Assembly (NCBI GenBank): GCA_965644295.1
Contig: CBFFRP010000281.1
Coordinates: 248,001-312,000 of the forward strand
Reading direction: 5' to 3'
Source: Paraphysomonas bandaiensis
Taxonomy: Eukaryota > Protista > Chrysophyceae
Length of the DNA: 64,000 nucleotides
Shown here: positions 1,876 to 61,236 of the stretch, piece by piece
Position numbering within the stretch: the first letter of the stretch is position 1
How the letters are laid out: every line of letters begins with the position of its first letter
Position numbers and translations under genes: made by a program
Notes under the pieces: generated by a model
The model's input: only the letters and a program-made list of their open reading frames with translations
Database searches by the model: none
Told to the model about the DNA's origin: nothing

Positions 1876-4251
1876 CTACTCGGAATCTATGATACCATTC
1901 AGTGTGGCACTTGGTCTCATAGCAGTTGATACCTTGTTGTGATCCATTTTGTAGTATCCCCCAATATCCACCGGCTTTCCTTGGCAGCCATTCAGTTCGG
2001 ATACTATGATAGATCGACTGTCTGACAGCTGTCGGTAAAGGCCTTGGAAAGAGGGATCGACCTCAGCCATGTATCGCGCCCAGTATAGAGTCAAGTAGAA
2101 AGTGCACCCACGATTGTCCAACTGGTTCACCTTTCGAGAGGGGCTCTTTCTGTTCTCAAGTAAGCGACCGATGGCTTTGTTGAGAGTATCGGAGAGTTGC
2201 TTTGCACGAGAATTTCCTGACGACTGCGCAAGATGATCGAGTGATGCTGCAATGGCCAAATATTCACCAAGTGAATCCCATCTCAAGTGCCCCTCCTCAA
2301 CGAACTGCTGGACATGCTTAGGTGCCGATCCACCGGCCCCTGTCTCGAAAAGGCCGCCTCCAGACAAAAGAGGAACAATTGAAAGCATTTTCGAACTGGT
2401 CCCGAGTTCCAGAATAGGAAACAAATCAGTCAGGTAGTCTCGTAGCACATTTCCCGTCGCAGATATAGTATTCAGTCCATTCGACGCCCGCTCGCAGGAT
2501 ATACGCATAGCCTCATACGGAGGTGCGATTCCAATATCCAAACCACTGGTATCGTGGTCGTTAAGATACTCATTCACCAAACCAATCAAGATAGAGTCAT
2601 GGGCGCGTGACTGATCCAACCAGAAGATTACTCGATCTCCAGTGGCTCGAGCACGAGACACAGCAAGTCGTACCCAATCACGTATGGCAACGTCCTTGGT
2701 CTGGCACGCACGGTAAATGTCTCCAGTGTGTACGGAGTGTTCACAGTATATCACACCAGTTTCTGAATCCACTATACGCACGACCCCGTCAGATGAAATT
2801 TCAAAGGTTTTATCGTGAGAACCATACTCCTACATTCATGAATTTCATTAGATGCGATGTAGATATATTATAACTTGTACACCTCTGCTTTGTTGGCCAT
2901 GAGGCCAACGTTAGAGACACTTCCCATTCGTGAAACGTCAAACTGCCCTCTTTCTTTACAAAAACTGTCAAACAAAAATTACACACGCTGCTACAAGCCA
3001 CAAAACTGTAACAATTTACCTTATTATCTCCTGGTACATTGTTGCGTAGCAGCGATCAGGGATCATACATATTGTTTCCTGGAGTTTGTCGTGTTTATTC
3101 CACATCTGACCACCATCTCGCACAACCACAGGCATTGAGGCATCAATAATAACGTCGCTTGGTACATGAAGATTAGTAATGCCTTTATCAGAGTTGACCA
3201 TCGCCAAGTCGGGCCTACATTCGTAGCACTGGTCGATGTCCCTCTCTATTTCTCTTCGCTTTTCGTCGGGTAGAGACTTAATTTTATCCAACATGTCTGC
3301 TACGCCATTGTTAGGGTTTATTCCAATAGATGAGAAGACATCAACGTGTTTATCGAAAACTGGTTTAAAGAACTCTCTGACGCAGTGTCCAAAAATGATT
3401 GGGTCCGACACCTTCATCATTGTTGCCTTAAGGTGTAGCGATAATAGCATGCCTTCCTCCTTAGCGCGGTTGATTTCGTTCGCGAAAAATGCTTTCAACG
3501 CCTGAACTTGCATAGTGGAGGCATCTAAAACTTCTCCTGCTTGGACTGGAACCGATTGCCGAAGTACAGTGATCGAGCCGGATTCATCAACATGCTCGAT
3601 TCGAACATTACAAGCCTCCGTCATTCGCACTGATCTCTCAGAACTATAGAAATCACCCTCCGTCATATGTGCAACTCTAGCACGACAATCAGGTGACCAA
3701 CTCATCATCTTATGAGGATTTCGTTGAGCATATTCCTTTACAGGCGCAGCAACACGACGATCTGAATTTCCTTGTCGAAGTACTGGATTTACTGCACTAC
3801 CAAGTACTTCAGCATAACGTGCTTTAATTAATTTCTCTTCATCATTCATTGGATTCTGTGGATATAATGGTATATCATATCCTTTTTCACGTAATTCATA
3901 TATAGCTGATATTAATTGTGGTATAGATGCACTTATATTTGGTAATTTAATGATATTAGTGCCTGCTTGGCGTGTTAATTCCCCTAATTGAGATAATGCA
4001 TCCACTTGACGTTGTTTTTCTGTTAAATTCTCTGGAAAATGTGCTATAATTCGACCTGAAAGGGATATATCACTGATTTTTATATGAATATTAGCCATAT
4101 TAGTAAATTTTTTAATAATAGGTAATAAAGCATATGTAGCTAATGCAGGTGCTTCATCTGTTTCCGTGTATATGATACATGAGGAGGAGATAGAGGAAGA
4201 GGTAGAGGTGGAGGAGGTAGAGGTAGATGAATGAGTATGATGTTGATTCAT
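1876..4251 (-). CDS. icd: Monomeric NADP-dependent isocitrate dehydrogenase, 3 exons (4251-3020, 2964-2883, 2829-1876)
   Basis: Motifs [62 protein letters not shown] and [16 protein letters not shown]. Splicing out GT-AG introns 3019-2965 and 2882-2830 restores the conserved [23 protein letters not shown] in frame. Confidence 0.96.
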
Positions 4252-4695: not shown

Positions 4696-6634
4696 ATGTT
4701 TGCATCTAGAGTTGTTTGCAGATATATGCATGCATATTATAATCTACTTGCAATCAGTGTATGCTTTGTAATACGCTGACTTGCACTATACTCTCATGAT
4801 TGTGTGGAATAGATAGAAGCGACAGTTAAAGATAGCACTGTTCAAATCTCTCCCCACTAAGATCGGGGCGACCCTTGTGGTTTCCTCGGTGGTCTCTAGT
4901 TGGTGGTATAGACCAGTAAGGGATACAAAAGACGGACGTGGTCCTTGTCGAATTGGTTGGATAAGCTCCTATGACTATCAAGACGTATGTTGATATATGT
5001 GTGTATTGTATATGGTTCTTATATCAACACAGGAGTCGTGTCGACCTCTTCCACTACCAGTCAAATTGGCATCAAGTGTGATTACTTTTCTCACAGTGTC
5101 TGCTTCATGCGCATTTTTATATTTGGGTGGATCTTATCGAATCATTGAAGATAAACACTACCATGACTTTCTTCATCATGTTCGGTATCGAGACAGTAAT
5201 GTTCCGTTGATCACAGTCTCCAATCATCGCTCCCTACTGGACGACCCCCTTGTCCTGTCTGCTCTGCTACCGGTAAGGCACTGAACCGTATAGCTGTTCA
5301 AACTATCTTATCTTTTATGTGCTGTAGTTTTGGATGAATTGTCAGCCACGTTATCTGCGGTGGGGTGCATGTGCTCAGGAGATCTGCTTCAAGGTACATT
5401 GCACATGTATATGATTTCACCACAAACCTGCACGCTGTCCCAGCTAATCGTTAGGGTAACCTATGCCTATATGGTTCGTTCAATGGCAGCAACATTAATT
5501 CATTTTCCAGTATTGAGGGCTTCATCACTCTCTATTTCATATGGGCTTGCTAGTCATTGTGCAAAATGCATATATGTCGCCTGTGTGAATCCTGGTTCAT
5601 GACACATTCACATTTCATACAATAACTCACAAAACAACACCCATATATATTCATCATTATTATAGTCGTTGACATTACTCATTACTATCGCACAGGAGGA
5701 ACATCTTTTGGCGACCTTCTTTGGTGTGGGCAAATCACTCCCTATGTGGCGTGGTGGTGGTATTGATCAGCCACTACTGCTACAGTTGGCCAGGAAGGCA
5801 GTTGGTTGTCCGGAAACTCATACCAGAGCTGATTGGCTGCATGTGTATCCTGAGGCTGGGGTATTTCAGCACAAGAATTCTTTAGGTGGTCGACGGAATG
5901 GTAAACAGTTTGAAATCGGGAAATTCAAGTGGGGAGTTGGCAAACTTATTGCACATAATCCGAGTAATAAGATGCGGCATGTAGTAAAAAATGAAGAGCA
6001 TAATGAAAATACGAGTAGTGTAGATGTCACTGACCAGTGGGATGAAGAAAAGTGGGCAACTAGTCGTCTAGCGTCATCATCAAGTGAGTACGATAGCAGC
6101 GCAGTAAGGAAACCATCGAGAGGTCCGGTGGTAATTCCTTTTTACTTTGTCGGTACTGAGAGCATCACCCCACTTCACCCAGTCACTCGGCTCTTGAAAT
6201 CTGTTATACCTAACTGGGGACACAAAGTGGTGGTTCGATTTGGACCTGCGATTGAAGTGGGTGATTTGATTGATGAATTTGAGGAAGAGGATAAGGCTGC
6301 TGGAGGGGGCGGACTTAGGGTTTATCACTGTTGTGGAGATCCAAACGCTCATTCGTCCAGTTCAAGAAGTAGTCGATGTGATTTTAGATCGTTGGTCAAT
6401 TCAGTCGATAATATGTTTAGTGGATTTTTCCGGAATAGCTCCTCAATTGATAGTGGTGATGTGATGGAATCCCCGGATAATAGTGAGAGCTCCTCTCAAA
6501 TAGACGAATCTTTATTAATGTATGATAGTGATACGTGGAAATCGACAAATCGTGAACGAATGTTGTATCATAAAATTACCTCTAGAATAGAGAAGTCTTT
6601 GCAGCGATTGTGTGATCAATGTGCAGCTGACTGA
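4696..6634 (+). CDS. TAZ: Tafazzin-family phospholipid acyltransferase (multi-exon; 5' exons approximate)
   Basis: LITVSNHRSLLDDP (HxxxxD motif), RWGACAQEICF, WLHVYPEAGV and KFKWGVGKLI. Exons are joined by GT-AG introns. The start at 4696 is inferred. Confidence 0.88.
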
Positions 6635-7847
6635 TAGAGTAATTACAACAATAAGTTATTTTTAATAATGAAGTTGGATTGTAGTGTATTAAATGAAGTG
6701 TGTAAAGTGAGGCCACATATAACTAACTTCAAAGCTGTAGTTAATAGTCAGAATTCGTAGTACCCGATTTTTTTCAGGAGGACTTATAAATTATCTTGTC
6801 TAGATAACTGAAAGCAGCCAATTATTAGCAAAAGAGCTTAGTCATAAATTGTGCACTGGATCTATTATTGAGCCTTGTCTATTTGGTGTCATTTCCTAGT
6901 CACACCAAACCTAGTGTAAATACGTAGAAACCTAGTTACGGGGTTAAAAATATGTAATTAAAAAATTCATATTTTCAGTTTACAATGACTGGGATGACTA
7001 GGTGTTTATGTTTTTTCCTAGCCCTCAAATAAAGAATGCAGATATTGAATTATGTATTACTTTGAGTTAGGTTTTGTACCAAAGTTCGTGTGATAAGGTC
7101 ATTCAACCACTTTGACTAGCAGGTTCGATTGCGCACACATATAACTACGCATTACAGAACAGCGATATCATAGAAGTAAGATTGCATGCCCAGCATAGAC
7201 CTCGTATCAAGTATTTAGAGAAGAGTGAAACGAATTGTATTAGTAGACCCGTGATATGAATATATATACTAGCATGTTGCAACAGCTGTTATAACGGAAT
7301 CGTCAGCCATTCTGCGTTGAACGACTAAGGTATTTACCAAACGATGCAGTTGCTAATGGTGAGTGGAAACCCTGAGTTCTCTGGACCCATCCAACTACAC
7401 ATACATCATCAATATCATAAAATGTCTTCATAAACGATTCGATATATACCTTAATACAATCCTCGGACCGGTAATACAACGATCGGTAATATTCTAGCAC
7501 GCAGCTACGACTGAGACCATACACATTGCACTTAAGGACTCAAAACAAACCGTGATCTCTAAACTGTTCATATAGTTGTAGTTTGTAATGCATTTCCCAC
7601 AAAATTAAACACGTTACAAGGCTGCAATTCACTCACCATGACGTCTACCTATAGCAGATCCTCAGTGTCACTGATAGAGTACATCACACCCTTATATGCC
7701 TATATATTCTAATATTTAACTTGTTATACTTGATGAATGCATTGATTACATCATAGCTAGGACTTTTATCATGTTATCTCTCCTCGTATCTTAGCTACAT
7801 AGTACTTTAAGAGGATATGTATGGTATTGTACAATGTACTGCAGCCG

Positions 7848-7995
7848 TATCGGCAGTCAGCATCTTAATTTTTCGGGAATATATTGAAGCAAATATATTC
7901 TATAATACTGATATACAAGTACGGCTAATATTCAGATAATTGTTGTCTCAATAATAGAGGCATCTTTGAACAAAAATATACAAAGGATGCCGATA
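7848..7995 (+). mobile_element. MITE family M1, full copy (TA-flanked, short TIR)
   Basis: Begins TATCGGCA and ends TGCCGATA. The internal sequence recurs six times in the window. Confidence 0.8.
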
Positions 7996-8410
7996 GGGCT
8001 ACGCACAAAGAGAGGTGCAAGAAAAAGGCCACATTTTCTCTTAAAATAATCTTAAAAATGATGAATTTTGATGCTGAAAATTATGTATTTTTTGCTGTGG
8101 GGCATATTTTATGTATACTCTTTTGTACAGCATACAGTAGTGTACATGTACTGTACACTATGACTGGTGTTAATTTTTGAAGAAATCCATTGAAATATCT
8201 AAAAAAAGTCGGATTTTAGTATAAAAATCTTAATTTTTTAGGGAAAGTCATCATTTTGAAAACCATTCCACATTCTTAGGTATATTTGCGTGGAGCCGAC
8301 AGAGTAGAGCTGGAACCATCATGCATATCCACAACATATACACTCTACATATCTATCTATACATTAAACTCTTATATCATATACAAATTAAGTAATATGA
8401 ACAGCATACT

Positions 8411-10072
8411 ATGAATGAGATTAATTGGATTCCCCGAAATATTGAACCTACTATAGCGAAATGGATGATAACACCATGTAGTATTGTTCTAATTAGAGGA
8501 CATCGACGTATGGGTAAATCATCTACAGTACAAAGAGTTGCTAATGAATTAGATATTAAACCATTAACTATCATCATTGATAGTAATGAAGATAAGATGT
8601 TATCATATTTTACTACTGTATTAAAACAATATTATAAAATTTCTTCAGTTTATGATATTGGGAAAGCAATTGTCGAAACTGTCCGAAATGGTGTTGTAGT
8701 TATACTTAAAGAGATTCAAAATGCATCAACTAGTTTACAAGTGTCTTTACAGTTTGGTTTTGATTACATGGCACAACAATCTATGTGGGATGCTCATCAT
8801 TGGAGGGAGAGTGGTATGGTGTTTTTGATGGGATCGGTGCAAGGTGAAATCGATGACATGATCGAAAATCGAAAGTCTCCTCTATATCAAAGAATAACCG
8901 CGAAAATTACGCTTCTGGGTTGCAATACGTCTGAAATGGTGTATTTTTTTAAGCAACACAACCTATTTGGAGATCCCATGCTAATGCTTTTTCTACAGAC
9001 TATTTTCAGAGGACGATTACACTCTTATTCAATAATACACAAAGCAGGTCTCTTAAAGTCAACAGATCGTCCTTATGACCAGCGTGCTAAGATTATCAAA
9101 GAAGTATTCGCGTCGGAGTTACAGTCTGAATATTTTGATGGGCATAAATTTTTTGTTGCACGGTATGGAAAGAAAATTGCTTTGGCTTTGAAAGCGATTT
9201 GCCAATCCGAAACCAAACTGGAACAAATCGAGGCAGTTAGTCGTGAACTTAGTATCACTTTTGACGAAGCTTTTACCATGGTTGATTGGGTTCTATTTAA
9301 ACGCTACATTTTAATTGCACCCGTATATGCAATCAATAATTTGAAATCGGTAAAGAAATACGTACTTCTTGATCCAATGCTGGCCATTGCTAATGATAAT
9401 ATGAACTCTGACTACATGAGAGAAGATATTAATCGATGTGCTGACCTCTCATTCCATAATTATATTGAGCAATTTGAAGGTTTTCATTTCGAAAGTTGGG
9501 TCGAAACAATCATTGAAGACAGATACTTGCTTGCGAATTCCATACCGATCCCGAGGGTATTTGATGCCCCTGAATTGTGCAAGCGTCTTCCTAAAGTTTC
9601 GTTTGATATAGCTGGAAAAAGCATTGAGATTGATGTCATTTTAGGATTTCCGCATTCCAATACGATTGTGCTGGGTTCATGTAAGCGATCATCCAAGGCT
9701 ACGGACGTATGCGGCTTAAGACGCCATTGGTCAGAACTGAAGAATAGCGAATGCATAACAGGAATTCTAAAATGCCTCAGCTTAAAAGCGGATAAATTAC
9801 GTGAGTGTTTAGTACATTTCAACACAGATACTGCAGACGAACGTTTCCATCAGCAGCTGCGCGACAACGAATTCATTGTAACACTCACAGAGTTACTGGA
9901 TATATTTCCGATTAAGATGTCCAACTATAGCGAAACGTATACGAAACCTGTTTCGACAAGATTAATTTCCAATACAACATTAAAGAAACCTTCAAGTTGG
10001 CAAAAGTTAATGTGTAATGTGTTAGTTTTCTCTGTAAGTGTATTTTACTTGACTAGCGTCATCATCAAGTGA
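8411..10072 (+). CDS. Prokaryote-type P-loop ATPase (ATPase_2/DUF234-like) with C-terminal PD-(D/E)xK nuclease-like domain and hydrophobic tail
   Basis: Intronless 553-aa ORF. Walker A GHRRMGKS, degenerate Walker B VVVILKEIQN, LMGS and SPLYQR. C-terminal GFHFE...EIDVIL...LGSCKRS. The last ~20 aa are hydrophobic. Confidence 0.8.
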   Translation: MNEINWIPRNIEPTIAKWMITPCSIVLIRGHRRMGKSSTVQRVANELDIKPLTIIIDSNEDKMLSYFTTVLKQYYKISSVYDIGKAIVETVRNGVVVILKEIQNASTSLQVSLQFGFDYMAQQSMWDAHHWRESGMVFLMGSVQGEIDDMIENRKSPLYQRITAKITLLGCNTSEMVYFFKQHNLFGDPMLMLFLQTIFRGRLHSYSIIHKAGLLKSTDRPYDQRAKIIKEVFASELQSEYFDGHKFFVARYGKKIALALKAICQSETKLEQIEAVSRELSITFDEAFTMVDWVLFKRYILIAPVYAINNLKSVKKYVLLDPMLAIANDNMNSDYMREDINRCADLSFHNYIEQFEGFHFESWVETIIEDRYLLANSIPIPRVFDAPELCKRLPKVSFDIAGKSIEIDVILGFPHSNTIVLGSCKRSSKATDVCGLRRHWSELKNSECITGILKCLSLKADKLRECLVHFNTDTADERFHQQLRDNEFIVTLTELLDIFPIKMSNYSETYTKPVSTRLISNTTLKKPSSWQKLMCNVLVFSVSVFYLTSVIIK

Positions 10073-10830
10073 GTACGATAGAAGCCCGGTGGTAATTCCT
10101 TTTCACTTTGTCGGTACATCACCCCACTTCACCCAGTCACTTGGCTCTTGAAATCTGTTATACTTAACTGACACAAAGTGGTGGTTCGATTTGGACCTGC
10201 GATTAAAGTGGGTGATTTGATTGATGAATTTGAGGAAGAGGATAAGGCTGCTGGAGGGGGCGGACTTAGGGTTTATCACTGTTGTGGAGATCCAAACGCT
10301 CATTCGTCCAGTTCAAAAAGTAGTCGATGTGATTTTGGATTTATTTAGTGGATTTTTCCGGAATAGCTCCTCAATTGATAGTGGAGATGTGATGGAATCC
10401 CCGGATAATAGTGAGAGCTCCTCTCAAATAGACGAATCTTTATTAATGTATGATATAGTGATACGTGGAAATCGACAAATCGTGAACAAAGTTACCTCTA
10501 GACGAGAGAAGTCTTTGCAGCGATTGTGTGATCAATGTGCAGCTGACTGATAGAGTAATTACAACAATAAGTTATTTTTAATAATGAAGTTGGATTGTAG
10601 TGTATTAAATGAAGTGTGTAAAGTGAGGCCACATATAACTAACTTCAAAGCTGTAGTCAATAGTCAGTATTCATAATACCCGAATTTTTTCAGGAGGACT
10701 TAAAATTATCTAGTTTAGACGTTAGATAACTGAAAGCAGCCAATTATTAGCAAAGAGCTTAGTCATAAATAATGCACTGGATCTATTATTGGACCAAGTC
10801 AATTTCGTGTCATTTCCTAGTCACACCAAA
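10053..10830 (+). pseudogene. Duplicated, frameshifted 3' fragment of tafazzin plus its downstream flank
   Basis: Direct repeat of about 6068-6909 with several small deletions and frameshifts. Confidence 0.93.
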
Positions 10831-10870
10831 AGAATAGTGCTTAATAACTCTAATGACTAGGGTTTTTAAA

Positions 10871-10993
10871 CCTAATACAACATTAGAGAAATATTCAGGC
10901 TGGCAAAAGTTGATGTTGTACAATGTGTTAGTTTTCTGTCTTTATAGTGTAATTTGGTTGACTGTAAGAAGAGATTTGCAGGGTAATTTGTAA
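10871..10993 (+). pseudogene. Orphan 3' end of a second ATPase-nuclease copy
   Basis: Diverged copy of 9968-10054. Reads PNTTLEKYSGWQKLMLYNVLVFCLYSVIWLTVRRDLQGNL* versus SNTTLKKPSSWQKLMCNVLVFSVSVFYLT in the intact gene. Confidence 0.8.
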
Positions 10994-12891: not shown

Positions 12892-13037
12892 TATCGGCAG
12901 TCAGCATCTTATTTTTCGGAAATATATTGAATCAAATATCCTCTATATAATTGCAATACAACTACGGCTGGAATACAGATAATTGTTGTCTCCATATTAG
13001 AGGCGTATTTGAACAAAAATATTTTAAGGATGCATAT
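12892..13037 (+). mobile_element. MITE family M1 copy
   Basis: TATCGGCAGTCAGCATCTT...GAACAAAAATA..AAGGATGC; aligns with 7848-7995. Confidence 0.8.
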
Positions 13038-13044
13038 AATCTGG

Positions 13045-13194
13045 GGGTGGTTGTGCATATCGATTTTATTAATTTTTACTTCATTGAAAAGTCATCGTTT
13101 TTTCATTAAAAAGTCACTTTTTTTCACATTTTATTGATAAAACGATGATTTTTCAATGAAATAAAGGAAATAAAATCAATATCTACAACCACCC
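13045..13194. mobile_element. Fold-back MITE-like element with long imperfect inverted arms
   Basis: GGGTGGTTGT..ATATCGATTTTATT..TTCATTGAAAAGTCATCGTTTT pairs with AAAACGATGATTTTTCAATGAA..AATAAAATCAATATCTACAACCACCC. No clear TSD. Confidence 0.65.
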
Positions 13195-13412: not shown

Positions 13413-14675
13413 ATGAAATGCATTCTATATCTATTGATACCTCTTACTGTTGTATGTTTAAACCGACCACGAAGTGGACATTTTAGTGTATATGGTCGTA
13501 AACGAGATGAATTTGCATATACTATCAGTGAATTACGTATGCAAATATATGAAGATATGATAAGTGATTCACCATTAAATAACTACACACAACAAGACTT
13601 AGATCATATATTCGGTGCTTATAAGAATCTTGGTGCACTGGTACCTTTTGAAAGACGAGCAAGTGGACGACCATATATGACTCATGCCATAGGCACAGCT
13701 AGTTGTGCTCTAAGATTTGGGTTGCCACCTATCTATGCGGCGGCCATGATGGGACATGGGACATACATTAAAATTTGGGAAACAAAGCAGGATTTCTGGA
13801 AAAAGAATATGGATGTTTGTGAATTGCGCCGGATAGTAGCCGCTTTAACGTCAGTAGAAGTGGAGCGAGTCATATATCTGTGGACTATGCTTCAAGGATA
13901 TGGTGGGAAACCTCCTCATGTAATGGAGTCACTTCTCCGTACCCTTCAGCAGGATATTAATGCTTTTGACCAGGAGTTAAAATATCTAATCCTAATGAAC
14001 ATATGTGATGAGATAGAAGAGCATCAGAATGGGGAGCAATGGTGGTCATACAACCATGACTTGAACAAGAGGAGAATGTTTAAAGAGTATAGTGATATGA
14101 TTAATATTACAAGGCTACTGGCGGATGACGAAAAAGCTGCAATTGTATCGAAAGCGTTCAAGTCAACAATGCTGCTGTTTTCGAAAAGGTGTGGATCATT
14201 TTCCAACGCCATTATGAATAATGATGTTTATGTATTACCGTTTAGTATAATTGTGTGTTGTTTGTATTGATGAAAAATACATCCTAGGCTACGTAGATAC
14301 ATTATAGGTTGTGTAGCTCACTCTCGTTCCCGCAGTTTTTATAGTGACAAAGATGAATTCACGCCACATTATGTGACCAAATCGTATTTGAATACTTCAG
14401 CAGGCGAACGCATGTTAAAAGGTATTGAAATGCTTAATGCTGCTGATCCGGATGGCATTTCCTTGCAACTCTTCCGTGGAACATATTATACTAGCAACTC
14501 CCACTTTGACAGACAGAGAAATTATGTGAAATCTAAACCGCAATTGTTTGTTTCCAGAATAATGAGTTTGAAAGCTATGTTCGAGAATGATTGTGAAATG
14601 AAATCATTGAGTGCTAGTCATCTAGCAGATTACGCAGACAAGGTGGAACCATATTCTACGTACGTAATGAAGTAG
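13413..14675 (+). CDS. Secreted HD-like (DUF6817/HD_4-like) protein, 2 exons (13413-14188, 14288-14675)
   Basis: N-terminal hydrophobic signal. RRASGRPYMTHAIGTAS...AAAMMGHGTY resembles the bacterial RxSGxP[YF]xxHxxGTAS...AAGLLH motif. Intron 14189-14287 joins the two ORFs in frame. Confidence 0.65.
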
Positions 14676-15645: not shown

Positions 15646-16766
15646 CAGGGCTGCGTATCAATTAATTGATTTGCAATTAATTGCAATTAATTGTCAATTA
15701 TTGAAATTGCAATTGTTGAAATTGGGACATCGATTCATAGTTGCAATTATAATTGACTCCAGCTAGCTTCAATTAATTGTCAATTAATTGATATTAAAAA
15801 ACCCACCTTTTTTAGTAAAAAAATCCAATTTTTAAGATAAAAATCGAAGATTGGTGAAAGACTATAATATGCATAGGATTATCTCACATAGTAGTTATTT
15901 AAGTAATTAGCGATAGGAGCGACAAACTGGCACCAGAAGTCATTGCACGAGTGTTATTTGAGAAAGTAAATAAATGATAATAATAGCGAAGAGGCTGCAA
16001 TAGAAATTTGTCCTGCAGGAAAAGGGGCTCCACATTTTCTGTGATTGATCGCTACCTGCTTCCATCTAATCATATGCGATCATTCGAGTTTGGTTCCGAT
16101 GTGTTAAAAGTCTAATTGTAGGACTATCCACCTATATACAGAGTATATACATGTATATTATGCCCTGTATTAAATAAGTGTTGTACAATTACAGAAGTAA
16201 GGTTAACACCAGCTTGACTTCCACGACGTTTGTACATTGATTGACGAACCCTTCATAATGCACCCGATTGTTGAGCGTCATCTGGGCGACAGGGCTGCTA
16301 TTATTCATAACGCTGCTTTCGAAAAGGCAGTCGTGAAGATTCAATGTGGCAACGAAGCCGTAACTCGGACGGCAAAGGATCAAACTAAAATATATTTGTT
16401 CGATGAGGAAGAAGAAGATTATGACGGAACGTTTGTTTGATGGTAGCAGGCAGCGGAAGCGAGCAAGACTTTTTAACCAGCACACTCGTTACGGATGAAA
16501 CACTTGCATAGCACAACCAATAAGGTTGAGAGGTTGTTCAGTAGAGCTACGATTGTTATGACGGGCTTGCTCAAGAGCTTGACTCCTCAACATTTAGTGC
16601 TAATTATGTTTTTACGCATGAATCGTTGCCTCTGGAATGAAATGACAGTTGAGGTAGCTATATTCGCAGCTAGTGTATTTTAGTACTAAATAATTGCAGT
16701 TAATTGCAATTATAATTGACTACAACCTGGGTCAATTAATTGACAATTAATTGATACGCAGCCCTG
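15646..16766 (+). mobile_element. Non-autonomous hAT transposon (1121 bp) with transposase C-terminal remnant
   Basis: Perfect 23-bp TIR CAGGGCTGCGTATCAATTAATTG. 8-bp TSD ATAGCTGG/GTAGCTGG (7/8). Subterminal CAATTAATTG repeats. Remnant TTNKVERLFSRA...IMFLRMNRCLW resembles the hAT dimerisation domain. Confidence 0.92.
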
Positions 16767-19296: not shown

Positions 19297-20063
19297 TTAC
19301 TCAACACTTTAATTACAAGTTGCTTTGGATGTCGGTGTGAACTGATTACAGACATTCCTTTATTAAGGTTCTATCATGAGTTCCTGAAAATATATTCAGT
19401 CACTTATCTATTTTAGTTTTACTAAACTTATCAGTGGCTTAATTATGAACTAATTACGATGTTATATTCTTTCATTTTCATATAATTTCGAAGCTGTCAC
19501 TCTGTCGATTGTTATCATTACAGTGCGACTTACACATAGCTACTACATTGTTGAAACTACGATGCCCTATTCTATATTCTATCATATGAAATATTTACAT
19601 CACTGTACATAATTCATCCATTCAGTTTAATGTTGTGAATAGCACATACTTATCAACACCAAAAAATGTGTTCGAATCACCTCTATTTGCTTTCGATCAC
19701 TACTTTCTCGCAATAAGCATAAAGTTTTGAACTTGCTCAGTACAAGAGTGGATTGGATGTTGAGAACACATTCCACATACAGTATCAGGAGTATCTGGAG
19801 AACTGAAAGGATCTCAAGAGCAATTAGGGCACACAAGATAGCTCGAATCGTTTTTACTTCTTGTTAAATAAGGAATCATTCACTTCTTTTGTTAAACATA
19901 ACATGTATAAAAGAGTGTGATGCATATTGGTTAATTATATACTACACAAGTCCCTTGACATGGTATAGGTGTTCTATAGAACCCTCCCATATACTATATA
20001 TAGGAGATATATATCCATATCAACTGCCTGTATACTGCTATCTATATATACATATATACTCCT

Positions 20064-20193
20064 TATCGGCAGTCAGCATCTTACTTTTCGGGAATAAATT
20101 GAAGCAAAAATATTCTATATTAGTGCAATATAACTACGGCTAGAATACAGATAATTGTTGTCTCAATATTCGAAGCATCCTTGAACAAAAATA
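20064..20193 (+). mobile_element. MITE family M1 copy (3'-truncated)
   Basis: Aligns with 7848-7980. Confidence 0.78.
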
Positions 20194-20249
20194 CACCACT
20201 AATCTCATGTCACTTTTATGTGATTGGATATATATACTGAGATATGATT

Positions 20250-21100: not shown

Positions 21101-21307
21101 AAGTAGACAGATCGAGCCATATATAATACAATGTTGTATACAGAGTGGTGTGTGTGTAGAGATAGTGGTGTATTGTAGTACTGGATATCTCGTACAGCAG
21201 TACAAAATATTCATATCATAATCCTATGTATGTACTATTGGAATATACATATGTACTCTATGACTTGTAGTGTGTAACATATGGAATATACAGTACTATA
21301 TACACCG

Positions 21308-21454
21308 TATTGGCATCCTTTTTATATTTTTGTTCAAAGAAGCCTCTAATATTGAGACAACAATTATCTGTATTCCAGCCGTAGTTGTATAGCAGTAATG
21401 TAGAGTATATTTGATTCAATTTATTTCCGAAAAATAAGATGCTGACTGCCCATA
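21308..21454 (-). mobile_element. MITE family M1 copy
   Basis: Reverse complement of M1; ends TATTGGCA...TGCCCATA. Confidence 0.8.
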
Positions 21455-21671
21455 CCACCAGCAGTAGATGCAGTAGTGGTCCATGTACACACCATGAACA
21501 TCATGCATATATAAGCAATTAAGTTACTAACACTAAGTTACACATTCCTTACATGATATTCAAACAATTCATACTATTAATTGAGTAGATACATATAACT
21601 TCAGTATACATACATTACTGTGGTTTCAATATAAGAAACCTTCATATTTAAATCATATAGAAAGACATTCA

Positions 21672-32268: not shown

Positions 32269-32385
32269 TGTTAATTAATGATATATTGTATATGATAATG
32301 GGATTAATAGGAAGAGACTTGTGTGGTGCCGTGGTAGAGTATATAGTTATGAACTAATCCTACTATGTAGCTGTAGGCTCATACG

Positions 32386-32535
32386 TATCGGGGCAGTTAG
32401 CATCTTATTTTTCGGAAATAAATTGATGTAAAATTCTTCTATATTACTGTAATACAACTACGGCTGGAATACACATAATTGTTGTCTCAATAATAGAGGC
32501 ATCATTGAACAAAAATATACAAAGGATGCCAAGTA
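32386..32535 (+). mobile_element. MITE family M1 copy
   Basis: Aligns with 7848-7995. Confidence 0.8.
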
Positions 32536-50670: not shown

Positions 50671-52482
50671 TCATCGAAAATTAGTAGACTTCAACTGGCA
50701 TCGAGTGCCGAAATATCCAATAAAGCATGAACACTTCCCAGTGGTATAGTCGCACACCCCTCTGCCTGAACAATCTCTCCCTGTTTCGTTTCCATACCCA
50801 CCCATAGGATCTGGGCCGGATGGACACTCCTGCAGTTCGCACGTAGCACCGCGATATCCAGCATCGCACACACATCCAACTTGTTTAGCAGCATCCCAAG
50901 GTGTGTTATACACCCTACCCGCACGACCTGCCAAAAGCCATTCAGGCCAACACGTTCCGCGATCATTGCAATTGTTGGGACAAACTGATCGTTGACATGC
51001 TATTCCATCGTAACCAGTAAAGCAATGACAATCACCTACATATCAATTAGGAATATATGTATTGATTAATTATAAATATAATTACATACCAGTAGTTCGA
51101 TCACATGTTCCTTTATTGGAGCATTCCACCCATGGGTGCAAGTCATTGGCCCCCACAACGGACCCCACCCATGCATAATCACTGGGACATCGTCGAAGGG
51201 AGCAATCTGGTCCCGTCCATGCCAACTCCCCCCCTCGGTCTGTATAGCACTTGCAGTTGTTGTTTCTCTCACAGGTGCCGTGACCAGAACACCCATTCTC
51301 GCACATGCCAGAATGTCGGTGGCGACGCATATCCCACGTCACTTGGCCCCACGGTTCTACGACATACGAAGGAGCACTGGAAGGAATAGAAGTTGGCTGC
51401 CCAGTAGGCTGCCCAGTAGGTTGCCCTGTAGGTTGCCCAGTAGGCTGTCCAGTTGGAATGCATGTTGGCTGTCCAGTTGGAATGCACGTTGGCTGTCCAC
51501 TAGGTTCACCGGTTGGAATGCATGTAGGTTGCCCTGTAGGTTGTCCAGTAGGCTGACCACTAGGTTCACCGGTTGGAATGCATGTAGGTTGTCCCGTTGG
51601 CTGTCCCGTTGGTTGGCCACTAGGTTCACCTGTTGGTATGCATGTTGGTTGGCCAGTTGGCTGACCTGTAGGCACGCATGTTGGCTGTCCCGTGGGTAGA
51701 CCAGTTGGTTGACCCGTTGGTTCACCGGTTGGAATACATGTTGGTTGGCCAGTTGGTTCTCCTGTAGGTTGTCCTGTAGGTTGTCCAGTTGGAATGCATG
51801 TTGGCTGACCTGACGGTTGCCCAGTGGGCTGACTACTAGGTTCACCGGTTGGAACGCATGTTGGTTGTCCAGTGGGCTGACCCGTTGGCACGCATGTTGG
51901 CTGGCCTGAAGGTAAGCTTGTTGGTTGCCCAGTTGGTTGTCCAGTTGGAGAGGATGTTGGCTGACCTGACGGTTGCCCAGTAGGCTGACTACTAGGTTCA
52001 CCGGTTGGAACGCATGTTGGTTGTCCAGTGGGCTGACCCGTTGGCACGCATGTTGGCTGGCCTGAAGGTAAGCTTGTTGGAATGCTCGTTGGCTGACCTG
52101 ACGGTTGCCCTGTAGGCTGTCCAGTTGGCTGACCTGACGGTTGCCCAGTGGGCTGACTACTAGGTTCACCCGTTGGCACGCATGTTGGCTGGCCTGAAGG
52201 TAAGCTTGTTGGTTGCCCAGTAGGCTGAGTACTAGGTTCACCGGTTGGAATGCATGTTGGTTGTCCAGTAGGCTGACCTGTTGGCACGCATGTTGGTTGC
52301 CCAGTAGGCTGACTACTAGGTTCGCCGGTTGGAATGCTCGTTGGCTGACCTGAAGGTAAGCCTGTTGGCTGTCCCGACGGATCGGAACTAGGTTGGGCAC
52401 TTGGAACTGATGTTGGGCTAGTAGTGGAGTGAACCCCACTGTGCATCAATGCAACTAGAATTATTGTTGCGATGTGTTTCAT
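50671..52482 (-). CDS. Secreted PT-repeat plus EGF-like (SIG/OCM mastigoneme-type) protein A, intron 51089-51036
   Basis: Signal peptide and a long PTGQ/PTCV array. EGF region [63 protein letters not shown]. Confidence 0.85.
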
Positions 52483-53148
52483 ATTGCCCAGGGTAATGGA
52501 TAGTAACTATATTGCACATCTAATCTTTAACGGCTTGCTTAGAATATAACGGAACTGTTAGTTAGAATTCGATCCACACAATTTGTACACTGAAAGCAAA
52601 ATATGATGTAGTGAAAATGCAGCTATAAGCTTGGATCCGTTGAAATTGCTATAATCATGATCTTTTAGTGTCTAATCAGAAATCTGTCACCTAAATGTGC
52701 TGTTGACTGAACAGATTCTCTGTTTATAGATGATCTTAAGAGTTTAGCCAATCAGAGAACTTAGAGCATAAACCACATGTCCATTTGGACATATTAGAAA
52801 GTCATATAAAAAAACAAAAAAACAAGGATATTCAGGATATAGTTGATAATAAAAAAGTCCGATATCTTGATCATAAAATCAGGTCAAATTTCCGTTGGGT
52901 CATGTCCGTTGATTTTTTTTTTAGAGATGCAAACATACAATATACAACAAGAGATGCTGGTGTGTATCATGCCATGGTGGTTTCATTTGCATACATAACT
53001 AGATGCAACGTGAGGTCGTTTATCATCTTAAACACAGTGCGACTTGTTCTCGTACTATTCAAATATATTTTAATTATATAAAACTTCATTGTAATATGTG
53101 TCTTTTGGAATAAACTTCATTCTACTGCACGCATAAATAAATACTATC

Positions 53149-54640
53149 ATGAAGTCGACCTTTTTTATTCTAATCGGGTTATATATCTTACAACTTATCA
53201 GCGCAACATCCGCGCCAACTATCTCACCCGCACCAAGTATCTCACCCGCGCCAAGTATCTCACCCGCGCCAACTAATGAACCATCAGGAAGACCTTCAGG
53301 TCAGCCCACAGGTCAACCCACTGGTCAACCCACTGGTCAGCCAACATGCGTGCCAACAGGTCAACCCACTGGGCAACCCACTGGGCAACCAACAGGTCAA
53401 CCGACAGGACAACCCACTGGTCAACCCACTGGTCAGCCAACATGCGTGCCAACGGGACAACCCACTGGTCAACCCACTGGGCAACCATCAGGTCAGCCTA
53501 CAGGACAACCCACTGGTCAACCCACTGGTCAGCCAACATGCGTGCCAACGGGACAACCCACTGGTCAACCCACTGGGCAACCATCAGGTCAGCCTACAGG
53601 ACAGCCCACTGGTCTACCAACAGGTCAGCCCACTGGTCAACCCACTGGAGAGCCGACAGGACAACCTACATGCATTCCAACAGGTGAACCTAGTGGCCAA
53701 CCAACGGGACAGCCAACGGGACAACCTACATGCATTCCAACCGGTGAACCTAGTGGTCAGCCTACTGGACAACCTACAGGTCAGCCAACATGCATTCCAA
53801 CTGGACAACCGACAGGTCAACCCACTGGACTACCCACTGGTCAACCCACTGGTCAGCCTACTGGACAGCCTACTGGACAGCCTACTGGGCAACCTACAGG
53901 GCAGCCTACTGGTCAGCCAACTTCTATTCCGTCCAGTGCTCCTTCGTATGTGGAGGAACCATGGGGCCAAGTGACGTGGGATATGCGTCGCCACCGACAT
54001 TCTGGCATGTGCGAGAATGGGTGTTCTGGTCACGGCACCTGTGAGAGAAACAACAACTGCAAGTGCTATACAGACCGAGGGGGGGAGTTGGCATGGACAG
54101 GGCCAGATTGCTCCCTTCGACGATGTCCCAGTGATTATGCATGGGTGGGGTCCGTTGTGGGGGCCAATGACTTGCACCCATGGGTGGAATGCTCCAATAA
54201 AGGAACATGTGATCGAACTACTGGTATGTAATGTATATTTATAATTAATCAATACGTATATTCCTAATTGATATGTAGGTGATTGTCATTGCTTTACTGG
54301 TTACGATGGAATAGCATGTCAGCGATCAGTTTGTCCCAACAATTGCAATGATCGCGGAACGTGTTGGCCTGAATGGCTTTTGGCAGATCGTGCGGGTAGG
54401 GTGTATGACACACCTTGGGATGCTGCTAAACAAGTTGGATGTGTGTGCGATGCTGGATATCGCGGGGCTACGTGCGAACTGCAGGAGTGTCCATCCGGCC
54501 CAGATCCTATGGGTGGGTATGGTAACGAAGCAGGGAGAGATTGTTCAGGCAGAGGGGTGTGCGACTATACCACTGGGAAGTGTTCATGCTTTATTGGATA
54601 TTACGGCACTCGTTGCCATCGTAAAACAACAGTTCTTTGA
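53149..54640 (+). CDS. Secreted PT-repeat plus EGF-like protein B, intron 54224-54278
   Basis: Divergently oriented paralogue of protein A with a nearly identical EGF region and intron. Confidence 0.85.
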
Positions 54641-61094: not shown

Positions 61095-61236
61095 TATCGG
61101 CTTCCTTCGTATATTTTTGTTCAAAGATGCCTCTAATATTGAGACAACAATTATCTGTATTCCAGCCGTAGTTGCATTGCTATTATATAGAGTATATTTG
61201 CTTCAATTTATTTCCGCAAAATAAGATGCTGCGGTA
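61095..61236 (-). mobile_element. MITE family M1 copy
   Basis: Reverse complement of M1. Confidence 0.78.

Follow-up and report, generated by a model that had tools for sequence, protein, structure and literature searches.

The prokaryotic system PDC-S27, as summarised in PMC12988326, is an abundant fusion of an ATPase to a PD-(D/E)xK domain, with a defence role that awaits validation. It belongs to a list of 145 candidate systems in the same position (bioRxiv 10.1101/2024.01.29.577857), and most PDCs still await validation (PMC12988326; bioRxiv 10.1101/2024.01.29.577857). PDC-S27 combines ATPase_2 (PF01637) with DUF234 (PF03008), corresponding to COG1672, and DUF234 was tabulated as prokaryote-only in 2012 (PMC3424549). 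Prokaryote-derived NTPase-plus-nuclease proteins are nevertheless an already known class in eukaryotes, the Crinkler/RHS (CR) effectors, and the families of Zhang 2016 may include the clade described here. The Crinkler core is an NTPase joined to a restriction endonuclease (REase), with the NTPase thought to regulate the nuclease, in an account that follows Zhang et al. 2016 (PMC11064341). Tiamat is likewise a bacterial antiphage ATPase-nuclease with homologues across eukaryotes; it differs in having a GHL rather than a STAND ATPase and a known bacterial antiphage role, and its abstract describes no tail anchors (bioRxiv 10.64898/2026.09.30.754977). A literature search, with subscription journals mostly outside its reach, found no account of a eukaryotic DUF234/PDC-S27 clade or of its anchors.

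Little is known about the destruction of viral or foreign DNA by microbial eukaryotes. In animals, TREX1 is a membrane-tethered innate-immune enzyme and MAVS a tail-anchored innate-immune protein. The CaaX box of OAS1 p46 directs it to viral replication membranes, activity being described also without the box (PMC9041830). In these three proteins a C-terminal anchor puts a nucleic-acid-directed protein on an internal membrane, as is proposed here; they have no homology to the protein of this study, and the likeness is a functional analogy only.

The window (the whole stretch of 64,000 nucleotides of Paraphysomonas bandaiensis DNA that was analysed) contains a gene for which, by sequence and model comparison, PDC-S27 (ATPase_2-DUF234), a bacterial defence candidate, is the closest named family. 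The two share a single gene and the same domain order. The new point concerns the clade to which the window protein belongs: 18 of its 22 extended members end in predicted anchors, against 0 of 66 bacterial relatives. The features of the gene are as follows.

8411-10072, plus strand: ORF of 553 aa, intronless; ATPase, helical domain, winged helix, PD-(D/E)xK, linker and predicted tail anchor
8420-9046, plus strand: ATPase domain, aa 4-212; Walker A, the LMGS sensor and the arginine finger (R161) all preserved; Foldseek matches 2FNA/2QEN
8699-8722, plus strand: Walker B; codon 100 is AAA, and Lys100 replaces Asp/Glu; catalytic Glu101 kept
9005-9019, plus strand: GxP motif of the helical domain, lost (FRGRL); also lost in the sister P0001
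9170-9406, plus strand: winged helix, aa 254-332; modelled as three helices with a beta hairpin
9413-9925, plus strand: PD-(D/E)xK fold, aa 335-505; model pLDDT 90; conserved E356, E361, E406, D408, S423, K425 and H439
10001-10063, plus strand: predicted C-terminal transmembrane helix, preceded by a low-confidence linker (aa 514-525, pLDDT <50)

The architecture, that is the order and folds of the domains, is near certain. All six motifs named by the sequence-only reading were located in their order within the ORF: Walker A (8498-8521), Walker B (8699-8722), LMGS (8825-8836), SPLYQR (8876-8893), GFHFE (inside 9476-9493), and EIDV (9626-9637) with GSCKR (9674-9688). Its assignment of the protein to ATPase_2-DUF234 was borne out by the agreement of the PDC-S27 profile, Atlas, structure matches and a profile comparison. 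The best match in the PADLOC library, judged without PADLOC calling thresholds, was the PDC-S27 profile PDLC04985 (aa 27-432 against profile positions 29-422 of 484, E 2.5e-28), which also matched 6/6 of the first relatives and, at 1e-216 and 1e-201, the bacterial relatives P0068 and P0048. Atlas returned ATPase_2/DUF234 clusters at 0.97, the nearest large clusters being bacterial, and comparison of profiles between the window protein and P0068 gave 99.9% over 444 columns. The structure model (pLDDT 90) was matched at Foldseek ranks 1-2 to the archaeal MNS-type ATPases 2FNA (SSO1545) and 2QEN (Paby2304), over 379-381 columns. The domain check that had been proposed found a STAND/MNS-type ATPase, a winged helix and PD-(D/E)xK in that order. 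The C-terminal domain, folded alone and compared by VIA-align, resembled AF1548 (Z 9.2, rmsd 2.8, 112 aligned), Upx (8.9) and FokI (8.2); a Foldseek search with it gave nothing below E 0.001, the best rows also being nucleases. Pfam matched AAA_14 to the ATPase domain at E 3e-5, below the Pfam cut-off, and did not list the window protein under DUF234, for which clade member P0032 scored above the cut-off (24.5 vs 22.5 bits); NCBIfam gave nothing useful.

An exhaustive search returned 77 relatives at E<=0.001 (best 4e-163), which shows that the ORF is not a chance frame. A 63-row tree placed the window protein in a clade of 32 rows (support 100/99) that stands separate from every named bacterium and has P0036 as its neighbour. 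It lay outside every sampled bacterial group in this tree, whose root was not inferred, and the donor is thus not picked out; the prokaryotic type of origin first read from the motifs is upheld. Direct signs of a eukaryotic source occur in few clade rows, namely the window itself and P0002 (EukProt), with L001 an indirect case through its long CAA microsatellite. L001 was the one locus recovered by a metagenome scan covering 26/64 parts; it has a frame break at 1012-1023, after the Walker A region, and keeps the hydrophobic tail. An alignment-based search added one protein only, which was bacterial, and a search with P0032 added no named eukaryote. Viral relatives were absent from five pattern-limited scans of viral contigs (A1, A3, P0032, P0026 and P0036), and tblastn against phages found no relatives. 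A viral origin thus found no support within the reach of these searches, nor in a Foldseek comparison with viral structures, which gave generic AAA+ matches only (best E 2e-6).

Two features of the bacterial family were followed into the clade, its catalytic motifs and its C-terminus. The bacterial comparison set came from 80 prokaryotic loci found with P0068, from which 66 proteins were recovered and 14 dropped, and represents one subfamily of DUF234; motif counts in the clade were made on 65 search matches hand-picked as clade rows. This nearest bacterial subfamily of PDC-S27 shares GSCKR, EID and the helix Glu residues with the window protein. The replacement of the Walker B Asp by Lys, already noticed from the letters, was confirmed at codon 100. 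The acid site is D in 66/66 bacterial rows and E (19), D (17) or K (7) among 46 clade rows, so the Lys is not unique; the Lys rows are scattered over the tree, and of the six besides the window protein at least three have further degenerate ATPase motifs. The GxP Pro is present in 33/43 clade rows and 66/66 bacterial rows. Where a canonical STAND ATPase has an acidic Walker B pair and a GxP motif, the window protein has K100-E101 and FRGRL; Walker A, sensor and arginine finger are all in place. In P-loop ATPases, loss of the Walker B acid and loss of GxP would weaken hydrolysis. As judged from these two changes, the ATPase of this copy appears more damaged than earlier described.

The nuclease motifs gave a different picture of one earlier claim. 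SCK had been read as an altered catalytic motif; it proved to be normal in the nearest bacterial subfamily and is inherited, since Ser occurs in 59/66 and Lys in 66/66 bacterial relatives. Other residues of the site are kept as follows in clade and bacteria, respectively: D408, 36/38 vs 64/66; K425, 33/39 vs 66/66; E356 and E361, each 31/40 vs 66/66; and H439, 29/36 vs 59/66. All of these nuclease residues are kept in the window protein, and E406 is conserved in clade and bacteria alike. The Glu of (D/E)xK is missing from the site of the window protein. Cfr10I is described as an active enzyme in which the missing Glu has shifted to a nearby element (PMC3424549), and E406 or E361 could be such a stand-in here. 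The site is changed further in the deep clade rows P0044, P0045, P0056, P0067 and P0077.

At the C-terminus, the window protein departs from PDC-S27 proteins, which are prokaryotic, soluble and end at the nuclease. Its neighbour gene is spliced and polyadenylated, and 57 aa containing a hydrophobic helix extend beyond its nuclease domain; it further differs in the Walker B Lys, the lost GxP and the lack of an above-chance palindrome in the 250 bp upstream. The hydrophobic C-terminal helix of the sequence-only reading is indeed the most hydrophobic segment of the protein (Kyte-Doolittle (KD) hydropathy of the top 19-mer, aa 534-552, 2.09; best elsewhere 1.32) and is modelled as a helix at 529-552. 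Hydropathy scan and model agree on the tail-anchored type, in which the one hydrophobic helix lies at the very C-terminus and the N-terminus lacks a signal, and a membrane anchor is likely. Bacterial relatives lack the tail, as had been supposed: their median extension past the nuclease is 3 aa, and none of the 66 has a transmembrane-like or CaaX end.

Predicted anchors recur across the clade and are of several kinds. Among 35 clade rows with a nuclease end, 11 stop within 12 residues, two have 15-18 more and 22 have more than 20. The 22 extended rows comprise 15 transmembrane-like ends, three CaaX boxes, which are a eukaryotic signal, and four with neither (P0001, P0012, P0014 and P0059). P0036 stands outside the 15, its hydrophobic stretch being the last core strand and a false pass of the tail test. 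Many of the 15 tail-helix rows finish with basic residues, several also with Trp. As a null, 77/670 stop-ended stretches of the window passed the transmembrane test (11.5%), and the figure for CaaX was 0.3% (p 4e-5); clade rows are related, so the anchor counts are inflated and not independent. On the tree, at least six changes between anchored and unanchored are needed, and four states need 10, the fragment P0013 being given the tail state of L001, to which it is closely related. The CaaX rows occupy three places, two of them amid tail-helix rows. A myristoylation-type N-terminus occurs in 3/31 (two of them sisters), and P0006 has no tail and a hydrophobic N-terminal segment; both are leads without a null test. 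That anchors of different chemistry arrive at one outcome is the best evidence for selection on membrane location.

The sequence-only reading had also pointed to a second copy of the gene end, and this was examined together with the flanking gene.

4757-6688, plus strand: upstream gene, tafazzin-like acyltransferase; spliced and polyadenylated; source of the later duplicate
10053-10072, plus strand: duplication junction; last residues and stop codon are supplied by the neighbour's exon, read in a different frame; microhomology of 2 bp
10053-10830, plus strand: decayed second copy, 87% identical, of 6068-6909, which holds the 3' exon of the upstream acyltransferase-like gene and its flank
10871-10993, plus strand: putative remnant of the original gene end, judged from the arrangement; tail helix, Trp and basic residues, stop

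The second gene end is real and keeps the helix: 9971-10054 matches 10874-10963 at 82%, and the frame is open to a stop at 10991-10993 with a hydropathy of 2.09. It is a tandem-duplication remnant, however, and therefore gives no independent evidence that the tail is conserved. A tandem duplication of ~4 kb, after which most of the second ATPase copy was deleted, would be the simplest history. The live gene would have been cut at the junction, leaving a chimeric C-terminus that ends in residues from the neighbour's exon. The cut left the helix whole, and neither of the two indels that separate the tail copies shifts the frame. The junction is bridged by contigs of runs X8, X17, X3, X5 and X12. 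A small repeat with inverted ends, at 6858-7018 and 10779-10870, may be the reason why the second ATPase gene was lost, since the deletion in the duplicated copy starts beside it. Beyond the Walker B change, the earlier reading lacked the GxP loss, the duplication-remnant nature of the second tail, the chimeric C-terminus and the CaaX and N-terminal signals of other clade members.

In three runs the upstream gene is spliced at three GT..AG joints, and in two it carries a poly(A) end at 6688. Its label is a reading of its motifs, the Pfam match being weak (PF01553, E 0.023; Atlas 0.91). The host is a eukaryote, since this gene is spliced and polyadenylated and the window also encodes HORMA, PPR and PT-repeat/EGF genes. 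These gene types, together with marine runs in which parts of the stretch occur, would suit a marine protist, probably a stramenopile. Between the two genes, a spliced antisense transcript on the minus strand at 7039-7778 (CT..AC joints 7394-7450 and 7563-7637) has no long ORF in a three-frame read, is possibly non-coding and leads away from the upstream region of the ATPase gene.

Expression of the ORF, which had been suggested from its composition, was found in RNA-type contigs and in two short ORF pieces from X17, a recorded poly(A) metatranscriptome. Single contigs cover 8397-10001 in X9 and 8579-10082 in X10 without an internal joint, and the neighbour is spliced in those runs, in accord with an intronless ORF; X8 covers the ORF in pieces and has the neighbour in spliced form. 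The RNA type of X8, X9 and X10 is a guess, X10 being flagged as probably DNA, though all three carry the neighbour spliced, and contigs as evidence of transcription carry neither strand nor expression level. Stretches without RNA-type cover at 6689-6909, 8015-8235 and 10225-10666 served as a silent-stretch control and are no evidence on the transcript end. Upstream, 13 bases ahead of the start, lies an ATG whose frame of five codons (8398-8415) reaches across the start codon and could dampen translation. The first 600 nt of the ORF have a GC content of 33.8%, and its GC3 of 0.33 is host-like (0.31-0.41 in 11 other window ORFs).

In the DNA-type runs X3 and X5, the latter under another organism code, contigs spanning 7968-10199 take in the entire ORF and the 3' junction. 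Among the contigs listed, each DNA run had one contig over the ORF at 80% likeness and no second, paralogous one; depth gives no copy number, and this is a weak hint of a single copy. A second strain has the ORF intact with the same 3' end. The two strains differ at 16 positions in 1606 nt of the ORF, vs 3 among those listed for the neighbour's transcript. Of these differences, 7 are synonymous (336 sites) and 9 non-synonymous (1254 sites), giving a pN/pS of 0.35 (Fisher p 0.057; one-sided binomial 0.035). The dN/dS check asked for earlier thus yields, at p about 0.04-0.06 and from few counts in two strains, what appears to be modest purifying selection.

Taken with its anatomy, we tentatively read this gene, at somewhat less than an even chance, as a relative of PDC-S27, transcribed and adapted to its host, which acquired a predicted anchor and likely acts as a membrane-tethered nuclease against intruding cytosolic DNA. 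The DNA-cutting, antiviral role is what we infer for it. Insertion of the tail would be post-translational and leave the enzyme on the cytosolic side; the mitochondrial outer membrane or the peroxisome would be a suitable target for a short helix with basic residues, such as many relatives have, the ER also being possible. The tether would keep the nuclease off nuclear DNA and close to the places where foreign DNA enters. The winged helix would bind DNA, and, as other STAND proteins do, the ATPase would gate the nuclease through its nucleotide state; in this copy hydrolysis may be slowed or abolished by Lys100 and the loss of GxP, so that the ATPase could serve as a scaffold or fixed switch, not as a motor. 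Upstream palindromes reached the lowest attainable p in 16/29 bacterial loci, and none above chance was present within 250 bp upstream of the window ORF or L001, which would fit a shift from promoter self-control to control by location. When 400 bp were tested, a palindrome at ~8137-8159 was of borderline significance (p 0.049). The kinship to a defence candidate, the kept nuclease site, the turnover of anchors and the OAS1 p46 precedent favour the tethered nuclease. Against it stand the damaged ATPase, the lack of any sign of expansion, immune genes being often expanded, and the weak defence context of bacterial relatives: PADLOC matches lay near 7/29 loci and comprised 8/116 proteins (one reverse transcriptase, two weak), a raw count. 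The 11/35 clade members that end right after the nuclease indicate that the family does not need the anchor.

A wider version of this history is possible but doubtful: a bacterial single-gene defence nuclease, taken up once by protists, was tethered again and again by anchors that can stand in for one another (a tail helix, CaaX prenylation, N-myristoylation or an N-terminal signal anchor), and location replaced the methylation or promoter self-protection of bacteria, giving microbial eukaryotes a DNA-cutting, cell-autonomous immunity. A selected bacterial-type nuclease, anchored several times by different chemistry, would point to a general solution in which self DNA is spared by location. 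It would also offer an independent hint on PDC-S27, among the commonest candidate defence systems in prokaryotes that await validation. The window gene is a small single-gene candidate open to localisation, knock-out and in vitro assay.

The same anatomy and anchor data would serve a membrane-tethered housekeeping nuclease that clears DNA leaked from mitochondria, plastids or food vacuoles. Such a role, which we consider unlikely, would sit well with the weak defence-island context in bacteria, with transcription in several independent runs and with an apparently single copy among the contigs listed; frequent switching and loss of anchors and the local duplication and deletion better suit a conflict gene, and the 16 strain differences against 3 among those listed for the neighbour's transcript also speak against it. 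About equally improbable is an active family in which the window copy is a weakened or decaying paralogue left by tandem duplication, a pseudo-ATPase and perhaps a DNA-binding scaffold. The Walker B Lys, the GxP loss, the deleted twin, a pN/pS of 0.35 drawn from 16 differences with a Fisher p of 0.057, and a chimeric C-terminus without the Trp-basic end of many relatives could all be decay, yet the ORF is intact in both strains and transcribed, the indels of the tail copies are both in frame, and Walker A, E101, the sensor, the arginine finger and every nuclease residue are kept.

The Crinkler/RHS comparison drawn by the sequence-only reading held for the core, an NTPase with a restriction-endonuclease-fold domain in a eukaryote, and failed for the header. 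The window protein has no Ubl or other N-terminal header, its ATPase starting at residue 4 in line with the start of bacterial P0068; it also differs in its membrane tail, and signs of a large paralogue family are absent. That the gene is a selfish or effector element of this kind, acting in genetic conflict or against competitors, is rated a distinctly poor prospect. It would share the two-domain core of Crinklers (PMC11064341) and repeats flank the locus, but these are dispersed genome repeats, the ends of an element did not turn up, and with a tail anchor the protein would be held back, not exported. Least probable by far is contamination with bacterial or viral DNA, or an error of assembly. 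The intronless ORF, the prokaryote-type domains and the bacterial nearest large Atlas clusters would fit this; however, the gene end is fused to a duplicated, spliced host exon, and this explanation is already largely refuted because contigs from other studies' runs bridge that junction. Host-like GC3, the pieces in a poly(A) metatranscriptome and a relative in EukProt also weigh against it.

Several further features were observed. Three relatives, P0010, P0017 and P0036, have 40-110 extra N-terminal residues and no tail; the extensions have no Pfam match and could be header-like, linking the clade to a Crinkler-type architecture. A dispersed repeat of ~150 bp at 7846-7995, with copies at 12892-13033, 20061-20196, 21305-21455, 32379-32530 and 61100-61231, has short terminal inverted repeats, is very abundant in DNA runs and is MITE-like. 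AAAA-N7-TTTT clusters occur at 8023-8257, 13087-13153 and 15797-15833, with units ~21-32 bp apart (19 matches vs 2.6 expected). The array at 8023-8257 was considered as a self-operator and rejected as a genome repeat, given the other two clusters; with the self-inverted region at 13045-13194, these clusters are possibly binding arrays of a foldback element. Adjoining that repeat, an ORF of 285 aa (13413-14270, plus strand) has no Pfam match and an HD-like motif by eye. A neighbour of the locus is a bacterial-type monomeric isocitrate dehydrogenase gene at 1876-4251 on the minus strand (PF03971, E 6e-186 for the piece 3019-4251), and at 51082-54231 on the minus strand lies a tandem pair of paralogues, which carry long PT repeats and an EGF-like domain.
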